Below, piece by piece: positions 53,771 through 63,322 of a stretch of 64,000 nucleotides of DNA; the stretch's first letter is position 1; each line of letters begins with the position of its first letter. Position numbers and translations under genes: made by a program. The stretch spans positions 1,728,001-1,792,000 of the forward strand of contig CAWGXH010000004.1 of assembly GCA_963826525.1 (NCBI GenBank), in the 5' to 3' direction. The notes below the pieces were generated by a model that saw nothing but the letters and a program-made list of their open reading frames with translations, made no database searches and had not been told where the DNA came from. The DNA is from an uncultured Methanomicrobiaceae archaeon (GTDB lineage Archaea > Halobacteriota > Methanomicrobia > Methanomicrobiales > Methanoculleaceae).

Positions 53771-54706
53771 TTACGGAAATGGCAGCGTTATACTTTCCAG
53801 CTTTTGCATGGCGATACCGGCGATGGCAAGGTCCTGAATGGCAAGACCCGTCGAATCGAAGATGGTGATCTCTTCAGGCGTTCTCCGGCGCTTCTTTCCG
53901 AGAACCACCTCCCCGAGGGTGCCGGCAATCTCGCCCGGCGTGTAGAGTCCCCGGCTGATAGGTACGTTGATCTCGCCGGAGTGGACGGCCTGTTCCCGGT
54001 CGTCTACGTATACCTCCGCCCGCCGGAGGAGAGCAGGGTCGAGCTCCTGTTTGCCGGGAGCGTCCGCACCGATGGCGTTAATGTGGGTTCCGTCTGCAAT
54101 CCATTCCGATCGCACGATCGGCACGGTGGACGGGGTTGTGGTCACGAGTACGTCACAGTCGCACGCCTCCTGTAGTGAGGCGCTGCGGGCGTTGTACCGG
54201 GCATACCGCCCGGCAAACACCTCGGCGTGCCCTCTGTTCCGTGCCCAGACCTTCACCTCCTCGATGGTGAGCTCCGCAGCGATCGCTTCGAGCTGTGCCT
54301 CTGCCTGTCTGCCGCTCCCGACGAGCCCGAGCGTCACTGCTCTCTTCGGCGAGAGGTACTTTGCCGCCACAGCTCCTGCCGCCCCGGTACGCATGGCGGT
54401 GAGCTCGGTTGCATTGATGATGGCCTCGGGAAGGCCGGTCTCCGGGTCGAGGATGATGGTGAGCGCCATCACGGTCGGAAGGCCGCGAGAGCGGTTTTGC
54501 GGATGCACGGTGACGATCTTCACGCCTGCAATGCCGAGCGCCGGCAGGTAGGCGGGCATGGTCCGAAGGTCACCCGCATCGAAGGTGACGTAGATCTTCG
54601 GCGGCATTCGGATATTTCCCCTGCCGGCCTCGGCAAACACCGTTTCGACGGCCCGGTTCACGTCGGCGTACCGGATCTGCTCTCCGCCGCCTGAATAGTA
54701 TCGCAT
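53771..54706 (-). CDS. ala: Alanine dehydrogenase (ornithine cyclodeaminase/mu-crystallin family)
   Basis: MPPK, RTMPAY, LTAMRTGA, GSGRQA, GADAPGKQE and FDSTGLAIQD. Confidence 0.88.
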   Translation of the reverse strand: MRYYSGGGEQIRYADVNRAVETVFAEAGRGNIRMPPKIYVTFDAGDLRTMPAYLPALGIAGVKIVTVHPQNRSRGLPTVMALTIILDPETGLPEAIINATELTAMRTGAAGAVAAKYLSPKRAVTLGLVGSGRQAEAQLEAIAAELTIEEVKVWARNRGHAEVFAGRYARYNARSASLQEACDCDVLVTTTPSTVPIVRSEWIADGTHINAIGADAPGKQELDPALLRRAEVYVDDREQAVHSGEINVPISRGLYTPGEIAGTLGEVVLGKKRRRTPEEITIFDSTGLAIQDLAIAGIAMQKLESITLPFP

Positions 54707-54757
54707 GCTTCCTGGTATCCGCACGCGAGAAGAAAAAGAGTCTGATCTGCTCCTGCC

Positions 54758-55444
54758 TCAGATCTCTTCCTGAATGCCCCGGATGGTCAGCCTGATGAGT
54801 CCCAGGTGTGCATCGGGCTTTGTGAAGACACAGATATAGAGGTCGCCGTACGGGGCGATGATCAGCTTGCCGTCGGGGGACTCGAGGATCATCTGGTTTA
54901 AGTTGCCCATCTCCATATCCGAGACGATCTTCACGCCGGCCCGGAGGAGATCCTCGGCTACGGCGGCAACCTGTTCGACATCGGCGTTGCCGATGGACTG
55001 GAGTGCAAATCCTTCATGAAATACCGAGACGGCGATCACGCCGGGTTGTCTCCCGATCTGTGCCAGCCTCTCCTCACTCATCGTCGATTCGCGAGCGATA
55101 GGCTCCTCCTGCTCCGGTTCCTCTTCGACTATACTGCAGCCGTTAGCCCTGCAGTACTCCCATGCTGCTTCGAGCTCGTCCGGGGTGTATGCTATCATCG
55201 TGCATTCGAGCAACGACCTGCCGTAGAGGTAGTCGAGCGCATTTTCACCGCTGATACTGTAGACCCGGTCGTCCTCCTCGAACCTCGCGGCTATGGGATT
55301 GCCTGCCTCGACGACGAGAAAGCCGCCGCCTTCCGGCCCGGTGATAGTGAGCGCGCCGGTAAACCCGGGGCTGACGCTCATGAGATTCGCAAGAGTCCCC
55401 TGCATCTTGCCGAGCATTGTCCCTTCAGGCAGCATCGGTCTCAC
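54758..55444 (-). CDS. DUF2226-like domain fused to a C-terminal roadblock/LC7 domain
   Basis: N-terminal MLPEG..FTGAL..G.NAL; C-terminal PGVIAVSVFHEGFAL..EQVAA..MGNLNQMILE..GKLIIAP..AHLGLIR. Confidence 0.75.
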   Translation of the reverse strand: MRPMLPEGTMLGKMQGTLANLMSVSPGFTGALTITGPEGGGFLVVEAGNPIAARFEEDDRVYSISGENALDYLYGRSLLECTMIAYTPDELEAAWEYCRANGCSIVEEEPEQEEPIARESTMSEERLAQIGRQPGVIAVSVFHEGFALQSIGNADVEQVAAVAEDLLRAGVKIVSDMEMGNLNQMILESPDGKLIIAPYGDLYICVFTKPDAHLGLIRLTIRGIQEEI

Positions 55445-55788
55445 AGAGCGGCAGTTATCCGGTCACGGTTCTTCTTCAGCTCGTATCTGATCCTGCCCAC
55501 GTTGACGTTTGCATTCGCGACGATGGCGATCAGTTCGTCCTCGGAGAGCGGCGAGAGGAGAATCGGGCCGTTCTCAAGCTCGACAAGCATCTGGAGCATC
55601 TCCCCCTGCCCGAGTTCCATGCTCATCGCCTCCGATGTTCCCATGCCGGTCGATGCCATCGCTCCAAGAGCTTCGATATCCACATTGCCTGCAACCACAC
55701 TTTCAATGACAAAGCCGTCCCGTCCTGCGACGACAGCGGCAGTCACTCCGTCGAGTTTTAAGAACTCTCCAAGAATCTGTTTCAGCAT
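55441..55788 (-). CDS. Roadblock/LC7 (MglB-like) protein
   Basis: DGVTAAVVAGRDGFVIES, EALGA, ELGQGEMLQMLVELENG and NVGRIRYELKK. Confidence 0.9.
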   Translation of the reverse strand: MLKQILGEFLKLDGVTAAVVAGRDGFVIESVVAGNVDIEALGAMASTGMGTSEAMSMELGQGEMLQMLVELENGPILLSPLSEDELIAIVANANVNVGRIRYELKKNRDRITAAL

Positions 55789-57170
55789 CTCTTCATCCCC
55801 TCTTGTTTTGCGTTTTCTATGTCTATTCTGATGGGCATCTGTCCGATGGCGTGGGTTGCGCACGAAATGCAGGGATCATACGCACGGATCACCATCTCTA
55901 TCCGGTTTGCCGCGCTCTCGGTCAGGGCACCGTTCTGCACGACCCTGCGTGCCATATCCTCGACGCCCCTGTCCATGGCATAGTTGTTCTGGCAGGTCGC
56001 CACGATCAGGTTGCACCGTTCGATCAGTCCGTCCTCGCTCACGGAGTAGTCGTGGATCAGCGTGCCCCGCGGCGCTTCGATGATGCCGACGCCGCGCCTG
56101 TTCGCGACTCCCACCGCAGGTGTTCTGATATCCTGCCCGGTGATGTCCGTATCCGAAAGATAGGCGACTGCCTTTTCGCACGATGCGATGAACTCGATAT
56201 ACCGGGCGATGTTGTAGGCGAGGGTAGTCTGGCTGTGCGCACCGAACTTCCGGCGATATTCTGCCAGCGCTTCGTCGGCACGCTCGCTTCCCATCTCCCG
56301 AACGATGTTGAGCCGTGCCAGAGGGCCGACGCGGTAGTAGTCGCCGGATTTGAGCCGGGCGAACTTCAGGTACGACCAGGGTTCCGAGTACTCATCGATG
56401 TACGTCGCGTAGTCTTCTCCCGAGAAGGACCCGATCCGCTCTCCACCGGCTCCGAGCACCTCTGCAGTGCCGTCATACGTCGTGAACGTCCCCTTGTCGG
56501 AGAGGCCGACGAATGCCGTCTTGACGGCACCGAACGAGGGGTCGACGTCGTCGAGGAGCCCCTTTGCGATATCCCATCCCTCCTCAGCGATGGCGAGCGA
56601 CTCCTTCGCCATCGAAAGAAGGTCGCTTCGCTTGCTCTCGCTTAAGGGTGCGGACATCCCGCCCGGCAGCGCGTTCCCCGGGTGGATTGGCTTGCCGCCG
56701 ACGGCTTCCGTCAGGCGCTGCCCGAACTTCCTGACCGCGATCGCCTTCTTTGCGATCTCGGGCGACTTCTTTGCAAGCCCGATGACGTTGCGTTCCTCCG
56801 GCGGGGCCTCGTGGCCGATGAGGAAGTCGGGTGCCGCGAGCATGAAGAAGTGCAGGGCGTGTGAATGGACGAACTGCCCGACATTGAGAAGTTCGCGGAG
56901 TTTCTTGCCGGTTTCCGGGGGTTTGACGCCGAAGATCTGATCCGTCGCTTTCGCTGCGGCGAGATGGTGGGCGGAAGGGCAGATGCCGCATATCCGGGGC
57001 GTGATGCGGGGCGCCTCTTCGACGGCTGCCCCGATGAGGAACTTTTCAAAGCCCCGGAGCTCGACGACCTGGAAATGAGCGGACTCGACCTCCCCGGCGT
57101 CGTTTACGTAGATCTTGACCCCTGCATGCCCTTCGATCCTCGTGACCGGGCTGATGGTGATCTCTTTCAT
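55782..57170 (-). CDS. [NiFe]-hydrogenase large subunit (group 3, MvhA-like)
   Basis: TRIEGH, RGFE, L1 RICGICPSAH, EAPRGTL.H and L2 DPCISCATH followed by a cleavable ~22-aa extension. Confidence 0.93.
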   Translation of the reverse strand: MKEITISPVTRIEGHAGVKIYVNDAGEVESAHFQVVELRGFEKFLIGAAVEEAPRITPRICGICPSAHHLAAAKATDQIFGVKPPETGKKLRELLNVGQFVHSHALHFFMLAAPDFLIGHEAPPEERNVIGLAKKSPEIAKKAIAVRKFGQRLTEAVGGKPIHPGNALPGGMSAPLSESKRSDLLSMAKESLAIAEEGWDIAKGLLDDVDPSFGAVKTAFVGLSDKGTFTTYDGTAEVLGAGGERIGSFSGEDYATYIDEYSEPWSYLKFARLKSGDYYRVGPLARLNIVREMGSERADEALAEYRRKFGAHSQTTLAYNIARYIEFIASCEKAVAYLSDTDITGQDIRTPAVGVANRRGVGIIEAPRGTLIHDYSVSEDGLIERCNLIVATCQNNYAMDRGVEDMARRVVQNGALTESAANRIEMVIRAYDPCISCATHAIGQMPIRIDIENAKQEGMKRC

Positions 57171-58084
57171 CCGCTTCTCTCCTTGATAAGGTCGCGAATC
57201 TTTGAGTTCTCTTTGTCTTCCATGATCAGGCTTCCGATGGTGAACGCATACATGGTATGGGCGACATCGTAGAGTTCTTTTTCAACCTCTTTCTGCGGTT
57301 TATCCGTCAGATCGGAGATCCGCCGCACCATCATATTGTAGATGTCGCGGCACGGTTCGCGGAGAATGTCGAGCGACGGCCCGTTGCACCCGTGGCACGG
57401 CACGTTGTTCTTCGGGCACGCCGCTCCGCATCTCCCGAAGGTCACGCTTCCGAGACAGAGGTATCCCTGGCCGAGCAGACAGTGTTCCCGGTCGGGAATT
57501 CCCTCGTACCGCCGTTTCAGCGACCAGTTCTCGACAGGCCCCATCGTCCTGTCGCACTCTGCGCAGACGGACTTCCTGGAGAGTTCGAGGGTATCACCTG
57601 CTATCAGCGCCGGAATAATCTGCTTTAAGAGTGCTTCTTTCGGCGGGCACCCGGTGATGTAGTAGTCGATCTTCGTCATATCCCCGACGGCGAACGCCCG
57701 GTACAGGAACGCAGGGACATCCTTCGGAATGGTACCGTCCGGGTGCGCCGTCTCCACGCCGCGGTAGACGTAGTCGAAGAGTTCGGCATTGCTGCTGAGC
57801 ATCGAGAGCCCCGAGACGCCGCCGTAACAGGCGCAGGTGCCGAAGGCGACGATCTTCTTTGCCCGCTTTCTGAGGAGATGTAGCCGCTCCTGATTCTCGA
57901 CGTTCCGTATTGCTCCGGTTACGAACGCGATGTCGATGCCTTCCGGGGGCTCCTTGACGTCCATGATCACCGGCGAGTAGACGATATCGGCCTTCTCGAC
58001 AAGGTCGAGGATCAGTTCGTGGAGGTCGAGCACGGCGATCGTGCACCCCGAGCACCCTGCAAGTTCTTCAATGGCTATCTTCAC
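57167..58084 (-). CDS. [NiFe]-hydrogenase small subunit (MvhG-like)
   Basis: GCSGC, GTCACYGG, GCPP, SVCAEC, CLL.QG..CLG, CGAACP and CHGC.GP; no Tat signal. Confidence 0.92.
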   Translation of the reverse strand: MKIAIEELAGCSGCTIAVLDLHELILDLVEKADIVYSPVIMDVKEPPEGIDIAFVTGAIRNVENQERLHLLRKRAKKIVAFGTCACYGGVSGLSMLSSNAELFDYVYRGVETAHPDGTIPKDVPAFLYRAFAVGDMTKIDYYITGCPPKEALLKQIIPALIAGDTLELSRKSVCAECDRTMGPVENWSLKRRYEGIPDREHCLLGQGYLCLGSVTFGRCGAACPKNNVPCHGCNGPSLDILREPCRDIYNMMVRRISDLTDKPQKEVEKELYDVAHTMYAFTIGSLIMEDKENSKIRDLIKERSG

Positions 58085-58093
58085 AGGGTCACC

Positions 58094-58657
58094 TCATTTC
58101 AGAACGAGCTTCTTCAAGCAGGCATTCGGCCCGGTATGGACGATCTCAAGCTTCGCACGCCGCCCCGTTATCTCTTCGATAGCGCCGACGACGTATCCGA
58201 AGAGTGTCTGGCAGAGGGGTCCCCCCTGTTCCAGGCCGTTCCGGCGAAGCGTCTGGCGAACGATGCAGTCGTGGAATACGAGGTAGATGAACGTCTCGCC
58301 GTTCTCTTCGATGATGAAACTCTCTTTATCCTCGGGTTTCCAGACCTCGAAGGTGTACTGCCCGGAGAGGAGGTCAGAGAGCTCGTGGAGCGCCCCTTCG
58401 ACGTCCTCACGCTTCTGGAAGTATTTGGCAGTTTCATGGCCGAACTTCTTTCCGGCCCGGTACGTGACCGCATTTGCCCCCCGGCCTGCGATCTCTTCGA
58501 GTGAACGGATGATGAGCCCGTTCAGTTTCATGACTCCGTGGAGCGTCTGCTCCATCTCCCTCGGTCGCGGTGTGCAGTCGAGAGGGATGTCCTCGGAGAG
58601 GTAGACGATATCGGTGTGGAAACTCTCATGGAGCTCGTCGATATAACTTGCTGTCAT
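58094..58657 (-). CDS. V4R-domain protein
   Basis: YRAGKKFG helix; FHDC..R, GPLC..LFGYVVGAIE.ITG and GPNAC (three Cys typical of V4R). Confidence 0.82.
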   Translation of the reverse strand: MTASYIDELHESFHTDIVYLSEDIPLDCTPRPREMEQTLHGVMKLNGLIIRSLEEIAGRGANAVTYRAGKKFGHETAKYFQKREDVEGALHELSDLLSGQYTFEVWKPEDKESFIIEENGETFIYLVFHDCIVRQTLRRNGLEQGGPLCQTLFGYVVGAIEEITGRRAKLEIVHTGPNACLKKLVLK

Positions 58658-58899
58658 CAGATCACCCGATTCAACATTTCACAGACCCGCATGTCGATGT
58701 AGTGCCTCCGGGCAGGATAGATCCCGCGGTGCTCCAGTGCCTGGGACGGGCAGATCTCGTGGCAGGAGAGGCAGCCCATGCAGTTATTTGGTTTGACGGG
58801 GACACTAATCCCCTCCTGGAGTTCGTAGACGTCCATGGGACAATCCTTGACACAGAGACCACACCCGAGACACGCGTCCTTATCTACACGTATATCCAT
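58657..58899 (-). CDS. 2x[4Fe-4S] ferredoxin
   Basis: CLGCGLCVKDCP and CMGCLSCHEICP; stop overlaps the V4R start (TGATG). Confidence 0.92.
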   Translation of the reverse strand: MDIRVDKDACLGCGLCVKDCPMDVYELQEGISVPVKPNNCMGCLSCHEICPSQALEHRGIYPARRHYIDMRVCEMLNRVI

Positions 58900-58929
58900 C
58901 TCTTGAGCCTCTTGGTAGATTCAATCACT

Positions 58930-58958
58930 GTGATATAAAAATCCTCCGATATTTATAC
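58930..58958 (-). promoter_or_regulatory. Putative TATA box of the ferredoxin-V4R-hydrogenase operon
   Basis: Minus strand TATAAATA and TTTTTATATC elements about 35-55 bp upstream of ATG 58899, within a 243-bp gap. Confidence 0.5.
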
Positions 58959-59142
58959 GTTGTGTTTTCGGTTGTTCAAGGAAAAAAGATTTCTTCCGAT
59001 AATGTCGTTTTTTAAAGTCGGATGATGGGCTACGTTCAATCGGCGGCAGTATATTGTTTTCGCCAGGCCGATTGCGAGTCTTCCGGCCGCACCCGGGAGG
59101 GGCTCATCCGCCCCTGTGCCCTTCACGAGAGAAAATGGTGGA

Positions 59143-59340
59143 TTAGTTGAGTTCTGCAACGTTTCTGGTGGCGGTCATGAGCATCTCAAGATCGTCTTCG
59201 GAGAACGACATCCTTCCCTGCAGATGATCGACCTCGTCCTGCTGCTGCCGGATACAGCGGTACATGACGTATACCATGAAGATCTGGAAGAGTACGATGG
59301 TGCTGAAGGCTACGAGCAGTATGCTCTCAACCGCCATCAT
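59143..59340 (-). CDS. Small single-TM protein with a coiled-coil-like tail
   Basis: Hydrophobic first ~28 aa, then RQQQDEVDHLQGR; ATGA overlap with the minD stop. Confidence 0.65.
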   Translation of the reverse strand: MMAVESILLVAFSTIVLFQIFMVYVMYRCIRQQQDEVDHLQGRMSFSEDDLEMLMTATRNVAELN

Positions 59341-60125
59341 CTCACCCTGAAGAGTGTCCTCGCCAGCCTGTCGACGAATCCCTCCCTCACCGGGCGGTCG
59401 GGTTCGTCGTCCGTGTTCTCGATCCCTGCAATATTTGCAGAAATGCGCCGAAACGCCCGTGATGCATCGGACGAAGGGTACTTGACGACGATGGGGTGAC
59501 GGCCCGCGGATGCACGCCGGACGTTCGGGTCTTCGGGGATGATGCCGATGATCCGTACCCCGAGCAGTTTCTCCATCTGTGCACGATTGAACTCATCGTT
59601 GGTCGTGGTGACGCGATTGAGTATCGCCCCTTCCACATGGCCGCCGACGGTCTCGGTCAGTATCTTGGTCTTCAGCGCGTCGACGATGGAGGAGATCTCC
59701 GGATTGACCACGAGAATCACCCCGTCGGCAACGGTCAGCGGAATGATGCCGTCTCTGCTGATTCCTGCCGGAGCATCGATGAGCATCACATCGAAGTCGC
59801 CGATGAGCTCACTCATGACGTCGCGGAGGCGATCCGGATTGGAGTTCTGGAACCCCTGGAGCGAGAGACCGCTTGGAACGACCTTCACCCCGAGCGGGCC
59901 GTCGTAGATAGCGTCCCGGACGGATGCCTTTCCCCCGAGCACTTCGTGGAGGGTTACCGGGAGATTTTCAAGTCCCAGGATGAGTCCGAGATTTGCCATC
60001 CCGACATCAGCATCCAGAATGCAGGTCTTCTTGCCGTACTTCGCAAGCATCGGGCCGAGGTTTGCCGTAACGGTCGTCTTTCCCGTACCGCCCTTACCGG
60101 ATGCAATTGTATATACATATACCAT
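59337..60125 (-). CDS. minD: MinD/ParA-family ATPase
   Basis: Deviant Walker A KGGTGKTT, DAD..MANL, IDAPAG and IPEDPNVR; C-terminal amphipathic GFVDRLARTLF. Confidence 0.92.
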   Translation of the reverse strand: MVYVYTIASGKGGTGKTTVTANLGPMLAKYGKKTCILDADVGMANLGLILGLENLPVTLHEVLGGKASVRDAIYDGPLGVKVVPSGLSLQGFQNSNPDRLRDVMSELIGDFDVMLIDAPAGISRDGIIPLTVADGVILVVNPEISSIVDALKTKILTETVGGHVEGAILNRVTTTNDEFNRAQMEKLLGVRIIGIIPEDPNVRRASAGRHPIVVKYPSSDASRAFRRISANIAGIENTDDEPDRPVREGFVDRLARTLFRVR

Positions 60126-60157
60126 GGTCGCTCATTCCCCGTTTCTTCTCGGGTAGG

Positions 60158-60740
60158 TCATACCCATCTCCGGAGGGCTTCTCCGACGTCACTTTCAAGC
60201 ACTGGCAGAGCATCGGGAGAGGACCTGCCGTACCGGACGGGCGATACCGATCACCGTTTCTCCCCTGTGGGAAACGCCGATAAGCCTGACATCTTCACCC
60301 GCCGGTCTCTCTCCCTGCTGGTAGAGGTAACTGAACTCTGCCGCCTCTTTTTGCGGGTCGGATCGCGTCGATCCGATGACAAGACCGTCCGCGGTAGCAA
60401 GCGTAAAGGACGTCAGGCTGTACTTCTCTGCGATAGCGGCGAGATGCTCCTGCAGGCTCTCCGCAGCAGTCAGGTCGATATCGGTTCTTACGCTACTCTC
60501 CGGCTCTTCCTCTGCCGGAACCCCTCTGTTCTGCACGGACAGCCGCTCCGGACGCAAGTTCGCGAATCCGGTCCCTACGGTGACCTTTCTGTGGAGGTCC
60601 ACGATCGTAGAGAGGTTCCTGTGAAGATCTACAATGAAGTAGAGGCATCCTGCGCAGGCTATCACCAGGATCACCGTGGTGATTGCGATAAAGGTCATCA
60701 GGAATGTTGTGTATCCCGTTGGATCCATAAATGGCGTCAA
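60158..60740 (-). CDS. Membrane-anchored protein with a roadblock-like C-terminal domain; probable frameshift near 60220
   Basis: N-terminal TM helix; LAAIAEKYSLTSFTLATADGLVIGS..EAA; the shifted frame ends DALPVLESDVGEALRRWV*. Confidence 0.6.
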
Positions 60741-60746
60741 CTCCTT

Positions 60747-61386
60747 CTATGCGTCACCATCCTGAATGAGATGCTCGAGGTTAATTCTCCGGAGCATATC
60801 CTTGCAGCTGACCCTGAACGTACTGTTGAGTTTATCAAGATCCATCTCTTCGATCGTCTGCACGATCGAATTGAGGTCTTCCTGGTGTCCGTCGGCAGGA
60901 GGAGCCCCTGTTCGATCGCCCGTCACCCGACTCGGCCGAACCTGCGGCACTGCTGCCACAGGTCCGGTAATGTTCGGTGGTGCGGGCGGTTTTGCCCCCT
61001 GCCCCGGTATCCGGGAACTCGCTGGTCTCTGGGTCCCGCTCCGGGCCAACGACGCTTTCCCTGGAGCACCTGCCTTTGGCGGTTCGGTGCTGCAGGAGCG
61101 GTTGAACTCCCGTGCGAGATTGATCTGTTCTGGGGTGAGATGGTTCAGCTCTGCCGCTGCCTCGCGCTCTTCGTCTTCCCGCAAACCGTCCAACGCATGC
61201 ATTCCCTTCTTCGCACCGCACTCGGCAAGCAGCACCTGCCCCCTATCGAATACTAATATGGCGCTTTCCTTCCCGAGTGCGATTGTAACAATATCCGGTG
61301 AACTGCGTACTCCCAAGCTCGTCCTTCAGTGAACGAAGGGTGACCGATCTATAAAGGCGGTGAAACATTCCACGCGGCAGCTGCAT
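60747..61386 (-). CDS. DUF2226-like protein; frameshift near 61287
   Basis: Reconstructed start MQLPRGMFHRLYRSVTLRSLKDELGSTQFTGYC joins TIALGKESAILVFDRGQVLLAE..GMHAL if one base is removed; Pro-rich linker and helical C-terminus. Confidence 0.65.
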
Positions 61387-61525
61387 ACGACCACTTCACG
61401 CCACTGATATTTAATATATGCTATATTTATTTGTTTTCTGCCGATACTATCGGGTGTGGGGAATCGTTGCTCCATTCCCCGAGGGTACCCCTCTCTTTTC
61501 GGGTAACGGTTCTCCGAAAATGATT

Positions 61526-61990
61526 TTACTCCGCCATCTCCCGAAGAACGAACGCATACGCGGTCTTTACGCCGTCTTCAACGGCTGGATCGATTGCCGG
61601 TGAATAGTGGTCTACGCTGCCGACCTCTATGCCGATGGTTACTATCTTTGTAGCAAGACCGAGTTCACGTGCAACGGTGACGGCCTCACCGACACCGAGA
61701 TCATGGAGGACGATTGATCCGTGACGCACCGGGGGCGGCTCCCGAAAGATATGCACTTCTCCGATGCGCTCTCCAATCCCGACCATAGCGTCAACGATCA
61801 CGATCTTTTCATAGCCTTCCATGAGGGGGATCAGGCCGAGCCCGCCGGCTCCACCGTCAACTGCATCTATCCCGGGATTCAGCTCCAGGAGGAGGTGCAG
61901 CACCGCAATTCCTGCCCCGTCATTTCCCATGAGCGGGTTTCCGCATGCAATTACTCGTCTCCGGGTGTGTGTCACGCTCTTCCTCACCAC
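61526..61990 (-). CDS. Hydrogenase maturation protease (HycI/HybD family)
   Basis: GNPLMGNDGAG, DGGAGG, IVDAM, LHD and IGIE. Confidence 0.9.
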   Translation of the reverse strand: MVRKSVTHTRRRVIACGNPLMGNDGAGIAVLHLLLELNPGIDAVDGGAGGLGLIPLMEGYEKIVIVDAMVGIGERIGEVHIFREPPPVRHGSIVLHDLGVGEAVTVARELGLATKIVTIGIEVGSVDHYSPAIDPAVEDGVKTAYAFVLREMAE

Positions 61991-62077
61991 CGGTTTTATT
62001 GTGCCAGGTAGAAAAGGGTACGTACAAACCGTTCAGGGTGCAGTCGTTTCGTCCCTGACCGGAGTTGCGTGAACAGC

Positions 62078-62872
62078 ATGATCTACATTGTTCCAAAACC
62101 GACCGATACGCCCACCGACAACTCCACCGGGCAGGTAATCGGTGAACTTGAGAAGGCCGGAGCGGGATATACCCTCCTCGATCTCGACTCCCTCGATCCG
62201 CTCGAGAGCGGTCTTGAGCGCGAACTCATCTGGGCATGCGGCATCAGGCAGAACGGCCATGACTTCGAGACGCTCAACGTACTCGCGCTTGATAACCGTG
62301 TCGTGAATACTCCGGAGAGTATCGTCACCTGCGCCTGCAAGGTGGCAACGACGGCGCTTCTCCTCCGTCGGGGTGTGAATACGCCCCGGACGCTGTTTAC
62401 GCCCTCGGGCGAGAGAGCCCGCTCCTTCATTGAGGAGTGCGGGAAAGTCGTCTACAAGCCTCTCTACGGCTTCGATGGGAACGGTATCAGGCTGATAACC
62501 GACGTCGCCGATCTCGAGGCGCCGCCGTGGTATCTGCAGGAGTACGTCCGGAACGATCGTGATTTCCGGGTCTTTGTCATCGACGGCGAGGCCGTGGGCG
62601 CGATCGAGCGTGTCTCCGACAGCCTGACACACAATATCCATCAGGGAGGGCTCGGAAGGGCTCTTCCGGTCGACGCGGAGATGGCCTCGGTTGCCGAGGC
62701 CGCAGCCCGTGCCGTCGGGATCGATTACTGCGGCGTGGATCTGCTCCTCGACGGCCGGGAGTATACTGTCCTTGAAGTGAACGGAACGCCGAACTGGCAC
62801 TGCATGGCGGCACCGATCCCGAAGCTCCTTGCCGGGTTCCTTATCGAGAAGGAACGGGAGATGAAGTCGTGA
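62078..62872 (+). CDS. RimK-family ATP-grasp alpha-L-glutamate ligase (MptN/CofF-like)
   Basis: VYKPLYGFDG.G, LQEYV, DFRVFV, HNIHQGG, GVDL and EVNGTP. Confidence 0.85.
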   Translation: MIYIVPKPTDTPTDNSTGQVIGELEKAGAGYTLLDLDSLDPLESGLERELIWACGIRQNGHDFETLNVLALDNRVVNTPESIVTCACKVATTALLLRRGVNTPRTLFTPSGERARSFIEECGKVVYKPLYGFDGNGIRLITDVADLEAPPWYLQEYVRNDRDFRVFVIDGEAVGAIERVSDSLTHNIHQGGLGRALPVDAEMASVAEAAARAVGIDYCGVDLLLDGREYTVLEVNGTPNWHCMAAPIPKLLAGFLIEKEREMKS

Positions 62873-62975: not shown

Positions 62976-63260
62976 TTACTGGAGATATTCGATTTCCTTC
63001 AATGTTTTTTCGGCGAGCTCCCGCATGCGCGCCGAGATCCTGCCCGATGACGAAAACTCGACATCTTTCATTGCGTTTGCAAGTTCGGTTCCAAGGACGA
63101 AGATCGCGTATTTGTGCTCCATTTTACTTTTATGAACCTGCGTCGGATCGATCTTCAGGGAGTAATACTGCGAGAATTTTAATTCAGGGTTCATCATCTC
63201 AAAAAAGTCTTTTATCTCGGTAAGCATCCCATGTAGCGTTATAAGCTCTTCCTTGTGCAT
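62976..63260 (-). CDS. UPF0058 family protein
   Basis: MHKEELI.LH and P..VHKSK.EHK.AIF.L. Confidence 0.88.
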   Translation of the reverse strand: MHKEELITLHGMLTEIKDFFEMMNPELKFSQYYSLKIDPTQVHKSKMEHKYAIFVLGTELANAMKDVEFSSSGRISARMRELAEKTLKEIEYLQ

Positions 63261-63322
63261 ATTCTCTCCCTGAAATAAAAATTGTAAATATAAACATATA
63301 TAAATTTGCACGCCAAAATCCG

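Follow-up and report, generated by a model that had tools for sequence, protein, structure and literature searches.

Several kinds of described system come close to the locus treated here. Mvh/Vhu hydrogenases (group 3c, MvhAGD-HdrABC) are cytoplasmic two-subunit Ni-Fe enzymes, the H2-sensing hydrogenases of group 2b (HoxBC/HupUV) work with the HoxJ kinase, and the MglA-MglB, PATAN and MinD regulators of filaments are represented in Myxococcus, in Synechocystis and at archaeal pilus and archaellum loci. To our knowledge, no H2 sensor has been described for hydrogenotrophic archaea. In this work we have analyzed a stretch of 64,000 nucleotides (nt), hereafter the window, from contig CAWGXH010000004.1 (positions 1,728,001 to 1,792,000) of an uncultured Methanomicrobiaceae archaeon. 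Between positions 54758 and 61990 its minus strand carries a cluster of eleven genes in which an Mvh-like [NiFe]-hydrogenase, accompanied by its own ferredoxin and a V4R-fold protein, shares a conserved operon with roadblock, PATAN-like and MinD genes. What is new here is the partnering of the Mvh-like hydrogenase, whereas the filament regulators with which it is combined are of a known class. Our favored reading, to which we give a probability of roughly 45%, is that hydrogenase, ferredoxin and V4R protein would form a module feeding H2/redox input to a roadblock/PATAN/MinD switch, by which a type IV filament would be controlled.

Regulators of this class have been connected to filaments before. 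Archaeal type IV pilus loci are on record as containing genes of FleN/MinD ATPases and roadblock proteins (PMC4858521), and MinD is taken up again in a further survey, where a reported role of archaeal MinD in positioning the motility machinery is cited (PMC13705601). In MglA-MglB switches, ParA-type NTPases are reported to take the place of MglA, and there are also fusions of V4R with ParA (10.64898/2026.10.19.760177). Synechocystis PATAN regulators bind the pilus motor (10.1101/2021.06.11.447907), and Methanococcus has been reported to show taxis toward H2 (PMC3817446). The word hydrogenase has 0 occurrences in the main texts, as available, of the two pilus surveys (PMC4858521, PMC13705601), and literature searches whose scope ended short of supplementary tables found no paper tying roadblock or V4R proteins to a hydrogenase operon. 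The locus tags Memar_1007 or Memar_1008, which denote the Methanoculleus marisnigri orthologue of the enzyme, turned up in two papers only.

The large subunit of the hydrogenase (462 amino acids, aa; 55782..57170; PF00374, NiFeSe_Hases, 4.7e-37) has both CxxC Ni-Fe motifs, with C61, C64, C434, C437 and H440 invariant among 21 sequences, and bears a C-terminal extension. The small subunit (305 aa, 57167..58084; PF01058, Oxidored_q6, 2.4e-26) shows 13 invariant Cys in the alignment and no signal peptide, and a HycI-family [NiFe]-hydrogenase maturation endopeptidase (154 aa, 61526..61990; PF01750, 1.7e-15) heads the cluster. Thus described, the enzyme is like Mvh/Vhu in being a cytoplasmic two-subunit Ni-Fe hydrogenase of similar size, with a C-terminal extension and a protease. 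VhuA and VhuG are indeed the nearest curated models, although the large subunit scores 390.9 bits against VhuA, under the cut-off of 800, and the small subunit 232.6 bits against VhuG, under the cut-off of 450. Among solved structures the best relatives of the large subunit are the bifurcating NiFe-HydABCSL (7t2r_D, 408 bits), MvhA (384–395 bits, with 5odc_F at 395) and an NAD-reducing enzyme (364 bits), and a comparison with 1.84 billion cluster representatives gave a single one above 50% identity, the next best being at 45%. No mvhD or hdr gene is adjacent to the cluster, the only FlpD/MvhD gene of the genome being located 1.59 Mb away (C4:195017). Neither was mvhD seen among the neighbors of V4R-linked hydrogenases in the loci annotated by listing of open reading frames (ORFs) or by Pfam, the other loci not having been searched.

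Two Methanocellaceae genomes and one from the Archaeoglobaceae possess, besides the V4R-linked hydrogenase, a second Mvh-like pair (mvhG-mvhA) that adjoins mvhD and hdrACB, and in the Methanocellaceae also fwd genes. For Methanocella conradii two forms, 'Mvh1' and 'Mvh2', have been described (PMC6046458). Phylogeny of the large subunit, which the first-pass annotation had put forward as a check, was approached with a quick IQ-TREE run (LG+G4, 88 rows, SH-aLRT, the Shimodaira–Hasegawa-like approximate likelihood ratio test, as the only support measure) on sequences of at least 400 aa from 150 representatives, of which P0041–P0105 and seven low-scoring outgroup rows were used; the outgroup did not fall on one side of a branch. 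Large subunits linked to V4R in Methanomicrobiales and Methanocellaceae formed one clade (SH-aLRT 100), and the canonical Methanocella pair a separate one (SH-aLRT 100). The V4R-linked forms of Archaeoglobaceae and of a family handled here as f15 branched elsewhere among poorly supported deep nodes, and the tree speaks neither for nor against a single origin of all V4R-linked hydrogenases. Because mvhD is not adjacent in the annotated loci and a separate mvhD/hdr-linked Mvh is kept in Methanocellaceae and Archaeoglobaceae, we conclude that the hydrogenase of the cluster is a distinct Mvh-like type, paralogous to the canonical Mvh and with a ferredoxin and V4R protein of its own. It also differs from Mvh/Vhu in being co-operonic with roadblock/PATAN genes.

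The Archaeoglobaceae loci have some traits of their own. Their V4R-linked large subunits (L015:5909-7093, L016:5548-6762, L017:5812-6981 and L018:6125-7339) measure 390–405 aa and end exactly at the last Ni-Fe motif, with no C-terminal extension. Two V4R paralogues precede the small subunit gene, and the ferredoxin gene lies between the genes of the small and large subunits. An acidic protein of 218–258 aa with no Pfam family is found beside the hydrogenase in both f15 and Archaeoglobaceae (L014:8987-9760, L015:5251-5904, L017:5083-5805), with 31% identity over about 100 residues.

Upstream of the small subunit gene come the two proposed partners of the enzyme. The 2x[4Fe-4S] ferredoxin (80 aa, 58657..58899; Fer4_7, 3.1e-13) retains eight invariant Cys in 21 orthologues. 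The next protein (187 aa, 58094..58657) had been labeled V4R, a name that holds for its modeled fold and not for its profile, since no PF02830 match appeared at E values up to 0.1, and an ATC_hydrolase match (1.1e-4) stayed under the cut-off. The structural model, built on 15 sequences with a mean predicted local distance difference test (pLDDT) value of 73.7, matches the sensor domains of MopR, PoxR and DmpR, TRAPPC3/Bet3 and the V4R protein MJ1460 (Foldseek probability 1.0, template modeling score 0.42–0.47), and homologues are named by their sources 'hydrocarbon binding protein (contains V4R domain)'. The fold therefore puts it with V4R domains (XylR/DmpR/MopR, MJ1460) and with Bet3/TRAPPC3 of TRAPP, although, unlike the V4R sensor domains, this is a stand-alone protein without a Pfam V4R match. 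Its invariant residues C131, C149, H174 and C180 are located at the zinc-binding site of MopR-type sensors. The V4R gene adjoins the small subunit gene in 19 of the 20 loci fetched (the exception being L019). In a four-chain complex prediction with the large subunit (residues 1–445), small subunit, ferredoxin and V4R protein (residues 21–187, the partner) the scores were 0.70, 0.73 and 0.68; replacing the partner gave 0.00 and 0.00, but replacing the large subunit still gave 0.66, and with a control that high these scores count neither for nor against binding.

Conservation of the neighborhood, another check named in the first-pass annotation, was found to be strong, and the refutation proposed there, a lack of such conservation in other genomes, is thereby averted. 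Orthologues of the large subunit (66–94% identity) are present in 32 of 40 relatives from the same order, one of them partial at a contig end, and absent in the remaining eight, which include all three f5 and all three f6 genomes searched. In ten fetched loci the core of ferredoxin, V4R, small subunit, large subunit, roadblock and PATAN/roadblock genes was complete (10/10), and MinD accompanied it in nine. A scan with the V4R alignment, at one genome per species, returned 80 loci from Methanoculleus, Methanofollis, Methanogenium, a Methanolinea metagenome-assembled genome, other Methanomicrobiales and Methanocellaceae. Counting for each gene only the loci long enough to show it, the V4R gene was accompanied by ferredoxin in 79 of 79 loci, the small subunit in 77 of 77, the large subunit in 71 of 71, roadblock in 69 of 69 and PATAN-roadblock in 68 of 68; where both flanks were long enough, MinD was found in 37 of 45, g02 (a PATAN-like protein described below) in 23 and the protease in 20, an orthologue of the latter heading the cluster in Methanoculleus-type loci. 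Chance clustering is ruled out by these counts.

Across the phylum, the V4R protein is present in 49 of 401 sampled genomes. Outside the order it was detected in 13 of 15 genomes of f14, 4 of 64 of f8, 2 of 54 of f15 and 1 of 2 of f29, where f14 corresponds to the Methanocellaceae (from named loci) and f8 to the Archaeoglobaceae (from the source names of 81–82% identical homologues). All but one of ten loci fetched from outside the order had the hydrogenase beside V4R, with MinD and/or roadblock genes nearby. The Methanocellaceae share the same gene set, and rearranged versions occur in Archaeoglobaceae and f15.

Downstream of the large subunit gene the cluster encodes a roadblock/LC7 (MglB-like) protein (about 115 aa, 55441..55788; PF03259, 9.5e-16) followed by g11 (228 aa, 54758..55444), a fusion of an N-terminal PATAN/DUF2226-like part and a C-terminal roadblock domain. 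Residues 125–206 of g11 match PF03259 (1.7e-8), as do all 11 orthologues examined against Robl_LC7, and residues 28–84 match DUF4388 at 0.051. The N-terminal half of g11 is homologous to g02 (hhalign 85%, E 6e-6), a cytoplasmic PATAN/DUF2226-like protein (60747..61384) placed by orthologue alignment whose orthologues match DUF4388 weakly (best 0.0023, 2 of 7 members). As to the earlier label 'DUF2226-like' for these parts, the Archaeoglobaceae counterpart scores 59.8 bits against DUF2226, above the cut-off of 22; for the proteins of the window themselves matches are weak and under cut-off, with DUF2226 reaching 0.032 in 1 of 11 g11 orthologues. Atlas look-alikes of the PATAN-like parts are DUF2226/PatA_N (scores 0.88–0.89).

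The product of g03 (60158..60740) had been called TM-roadblock-like, TM standing for transmembrane. Pfam and NCBIfam gave no match for g02, g03 or g05, and comparison of g03 with the roadblock alignment by hhalign was negative (probability 0.7%). However, the AlphaFold 2 (AF2) model of an orthologue (from L010, pLDDT 83) consists of a helix at 3–51, a disordered linker and an alpha/beta domain at 89–185, and the top Foldseek matches of this C-terminal domain are MglB 6hjm and other roadblock entries (probability 1.0, E 9e-4). The label is thus upheld by the long N-terminal helix and the modeled fold and not by profile comparison, and g03 is described here as a membrane-anchored protein with a predicted roadblock/MglB fold, the assignment being one of fold alone.

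The archaeal MinD-type ATPase (262 aa, 59337..60125) is supported by TIGR01969 (325 bits, cut-off 201.75) and PF01656 (4.7e-22), has the deviant Walker A motif GKGGTGKT and contains one Cys, with no CxC motif visible in its sequence. After it comes g05 (59143..59340), an ORF for a small protein of 65 aa with one hydrophobic helix, whose orthologues were located after MinD by tblastn in L001, L010, L021 and L027, with a weak one in the Methanocellaceae locus L012 (E 7e-4). This MinD is one of two paralogues in the genome, which has three roadblock domains, two in the cluster and one beside the second MinD. That second paralogue (67% identical) is divergent to the third roadblock gene, which is followed by a response regulator with a receiver domain (G000:C4:906815-909046, equivalent to L104:7813-10046), in a hydrogenase-free locus between ATP synthase/pgk-like and RNA polymerase genes.

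The identity of the regulators becomes evident when the loci of relatives are compared. In f15 the order is ferredoxin-V4R-small-large, and then a T2SSE/PilB3_N ATPase, a T2SSF platform protein and a KaiC-like ATPase; beside this locus there are a divergent MinD, a 660-aa DUF2226 protein, three roadblock genes and a small GTPase. The f15 PilB/PilC genes then served as queries for the other loci. In 24 of the 57 with room, the operon is continued on its downstream side, in the same direction, by genes for a PilB3-type ATPase and PilC, and in 25 of 74 the ferredoxin gene has an archaeal A24 prepilin peptidase gene at most 2.5 kb upstream. The full nested order starts with the peptidase and continues as ferredoxin-V4R-small-large-roadblock-PATAN/roadblock-(PATAN-MinD)-u209-PilB-PilC-PilC2. 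A PilB orthologue was detected in every one of 41 genomes of the order. The pilus locus of three hydrogenase-negative f5 genomes reads PilC2, PilC, PilB, PATAN/roadblock and roadblock in the leftward direction, then PATAN, TM-roadblock and MinD rightward and, farther along, u209 leftward and the peptidase rightward. Its roadblock gene, directly upstream of PATAN-roadblock and PilB, encodes a protein 68–77% identical to that of the window, and no ferredoxin, V4R or hydrogenase gene is found at the pilus locus of these three genomes. One f6 genome has only the peptidase and, next to it, u209-PilB-PilC, so that regulator orthologues stand at the pilus locus in three of the four hydrogenase-negative genomes examined.

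From these comparisons, the roadblock, PATAN/roadblock, PATAN, TM-roadblock and MinD genes are pilus-locus genes by orthology and are not specific to the hydrogenase, which agrees with the first-pass remark that none of the accessory genes is a standard hydrogenase accessory factor. The genes for ferredoxin, V4R protein and both hydrogenase subunits were added to this set as a block, immediately upstream of roadblock; in genomes of the Methanoculleus type it was the hydrogenase, and not PilB, that the regulators accompanied. Because the regulators occur at pilus loci without a hydrogenase, and because an association of MinD and roadblock genes with archaeal pilus loci has been published, the switch is most likely a pilus regulator to which hydrogenase, ferredoxin and V4R are an add-on. 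The link between hydrogenase and roadblock/MinD first suggested for this locus therefore stands as gene coupling in a conserved operon, and has to be qualified in that the switch itself belongs to the pilus system, with orthologues at PilB3/PilC loci that have no hydrogenase. Like the MglA-MglB/PATAN/MinD filament regulators, the set comprises roadblock folds, PATAN-like domains and a SIMIBI NTPase, beside PilB/PilC in relatives. Unlike MglA-MglB, there is no small GTPase in the window (only the f15 locus has one), MinD taking the place of the NTPase, and the input module would be a hydrogenase.

Two further observations concern these pilus-like loci. The f15 flank L014:11539-15336, with its small Arf/Ras-like GTPase, three roadblock genes and DUF2226 protein, amounts to a full MglA/MglB-like set beside MinD. 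The protein u209 (about 205 aa, conserved, without Pfam match; L062:15635-16261, L082:13957-14565, L106:8531-9169) is always encoded before the PilB3-type ATPase, and its N-terminus resembles by eye the PATAN-like domains of g02 and g11.

In the reading that we favor, for which we infer every protein contact, the direction of signaling and the output from gene context, H2 oxidation at the Ni-Fe site would reduce the clusters of the small subunit and the ferredoxin. Ferredoxin and V4R protein would bind the small subunit, and the V4R protein, having a Bet3/TRAPP-like, ligand-binding fold, might pass the redox state on to the roadblock/PATAN proteins, with which either V4R or ferredoxin would make contact. 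These in turn could set the nucleotide state or the membrane location of MinD, and MinD together with the PATAN domains would control assembly or placement of the PilB3/PilC filament. The use of a Ni-Fe hydrogenase as signal input recalls the group 2b sensors, although for the cluster this role is only proposed; here the large subunit is nearest to group 3, a C-terminal extension and protease are present, and there is no histidine kinase among the cluster genes, the proposed transducers being V4R, roadblock, PATAN and MinD. That this amounts to a new mode of H2 sensing, in which a group-3, Mvh-derived hydrogenase with a dedicated ferredoxin and a Bet3-like V4R protein would pass its redox state to an NTPase switch of roadblock, PATAN and MinD proteins, without any histidine kinase, we regard as somewhat doubtful.

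Several observations weigh against an input module of this kind. The hydrogenase keeps all Ni-Fe ligands, the Cys of a three-cluster-type small subunit, the C-terminal extension and its own protease, and so has a catalytic or metabolic look unlike that of the group 2b sensors. Genomes of the Methanoculleus type have no other Mvh-like hydrogenase, so that this one could still supply Hdr via the distant MvhD. In the window's genome the peptidase and u209-PilB-PilC locus stands alone, 550 kb away and with no roadblock gene beside it, and in Methanocellaceae the stretch of about 3.6 kb that follows MinD showed no PilB; the connection to the pilus is therefore one of orthology and not of adjacency in these genomes. 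The f15 and Archaeoglobaceae V4R-linked forms fall outside the Methanomicrobiales clade, in a quick tree that did not resolve the deep nodes. Finally, all loci come from related genomes and are not independent observations, so that the conservation counts speak of persistence and not of independent events.

Some of these points would fit an ordinary Mvh, in which electrons from H2 pass via the distant MvhD to HdrABC for bifurcation and the neighboring genes are co-operonic for unrelated reasons. The closest curated models and the MvhA chains (384–395 bits) agree with this, the enzyme is the only Mvh-like one in the window's genome, and its Methanoculleus marisnigri orthologue, Memar_1007-1008, is listed as F420-non-reducing hydrogenase, i.e., Mvh (PMC2686161). 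Nevertheless, the scores fall far short of the curated models, with 391 bits where 800 is the cut-off and 233 where it is 450, no mvhD was seen beside the enzyme in the loci annotated by Pfam or by listing of ORFs (the only ones searched for it), in genomes with both types the copy linked to mvhD/hdr lies apart, and the ferredoxin and V4R partners are invariant. Moreover, the enzyme is missing in 8 of 40 relatives, and many Methanomicrobiales are described as lacking MvhAG (PMC3087415). On balance an ordinary Mvh seems quite improbable to us. The direction of control could also be reversed, the switch acting on the enzyme, with a metabolic hydrogenase (H2:ferredoxin, or H2 to a V4R-bound acceptor) placed or tethered by MinD/roadblock/PATAN at the membrane or near the pilus machine. 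Positioning of large complexes is a known task of MinD/ParA ATPases, and archaeal MinD is reported to perform it for the motility machinery (cited in PMC13705601); the cluster includes two membrane proteins, g03 and g05, the hydrogenase looks fully catalytic, and the Methanoculleus regulators moved with it, leaving PilB/PilC behind. Yet the V4R protein has no known acceptor or substrate, and the regulators are conserved at a pilus locus without any hydrogenase, which therefore cannot be their primary client. We hold such a positioned enzyme to be unlikely.

A role in maturation was considered as well, with MinD/roadblock as factors for metal or Fe-S delivery. MinD shares its SIMIBI class with HypB and CooC, and a maturation protease heads the cluster. 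Association of ParA with HypA has been proposed as a replacement for HypB in other systems (10.64898/2026.10.19.760177). However, this MinD has a single Cys and no visible CxC motif, and is missing from 8 of 45 loci. We have rejected this very improbable explanation, given that orthologues of MinD, roadblock, PATAN and TM-roadblock occur at the pilus locus of genomes without hydrogenase.

All eleven co-oriented minus-strand genes listed by the first-pass annotation are present as ORFs. Their start and stop codons overlap or almost abut; the start of g05 overlaps the MinD stop by 4 nt, the ferredoxin stop overlaps the V4R start, and a T-run follows g11 on its 3' side as read from the sequence. 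The roadblock gene probably starts with the ATG at 55788, rather than at 55863, and so overlaps the end of the large subunit gene. An AT-rich intergenic stretch with two TATA-like boxes 5' of the ferredoxin gene (58900..58960, minus strand) is a possible archaeal promoter for the six-gene core operon. It is overlapped by a TTG-initiated ORF between g05 and the ferredoxin gene (58953-59159, 68 aa, no family match), which is probably not a gene. The flanking genes, an ornithine cyclodeaminase/mu-crystallin family member (53771-54724), a RimK-type ATP-grasp gene (62069-62872) and UPF0058 (62976-63311), are syntenic in close relatives only (L006, L009, L010) and apparently unrelated to the cluster.

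Orthologue alignment and reading of the DNA point to an apparent 1-nt frameshift in g02 near 61287-61290, where the contig of a relative from an RNA library has one base fewer at 61287, and the true start of this gene, whose frame is split in the assembly, is probably the ATG near 61384. A similar apparent 1-nt frameshift near 60216-60222 cuts off the last helix of g03. Elsewhere in the same genome the FrhA frame is short (350 aa against 455–462 in relatives) and PilC is split, with cut-frame sites at G000:C4:623902-624498 and L106:11384-13346. Since these frames are cut too, we take the frameshifts of g02 and g03 as probable errors of assembly, with indels in the contig rather than gene decay. 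The RNA-library data come from one metatranscriptome run (X1) that contained 7% of the sampled words. From it, 28 contigs were placed at a likeness of at least 85%, none at 99% or above, over 22 of 30 bins; they are contigs of relatives, by their nature unable to reveal a transcript, in a library where DNA was possibly present, and so give no evidence for expression or co-transcription here, nor do the empty bins carry any meaning.

What is called Mvh in Methanoculleus and many Methanomicrobiales is the orthologue of the second, V4R-linked hydrogenase that coexists with the canonical Mvh in Methanocella, rather than the enzyme linked to mvhD/hdr, and this identity bears on models of electron bifurcation in abundant methanogens of biogas plants and wetlands. 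The tie between a redox enzyme and MinD/MglB/PATAN polarity modules with archaeal type IV filaments is of relevance to syntrophic attachment and to the evolution of NTPase regulators of the roadblock/Bet3 type. The cluster is, in addition, a concrete candidate for the H2 sensor of hydrogenotrophic archaea. If the new mode of H2 sensing described above is real, H2 supply would govern the building, placement or retraction of type IV filaments in methanogens and in some Archaeoglobaceae, the pairing of V4R and roadblock proteins would represent a redox-coupled counterpart, in prokaryotes, to the Bet3-longin architecture of TRAPP, and the filaments might serve for attachment to H2-producing partners.

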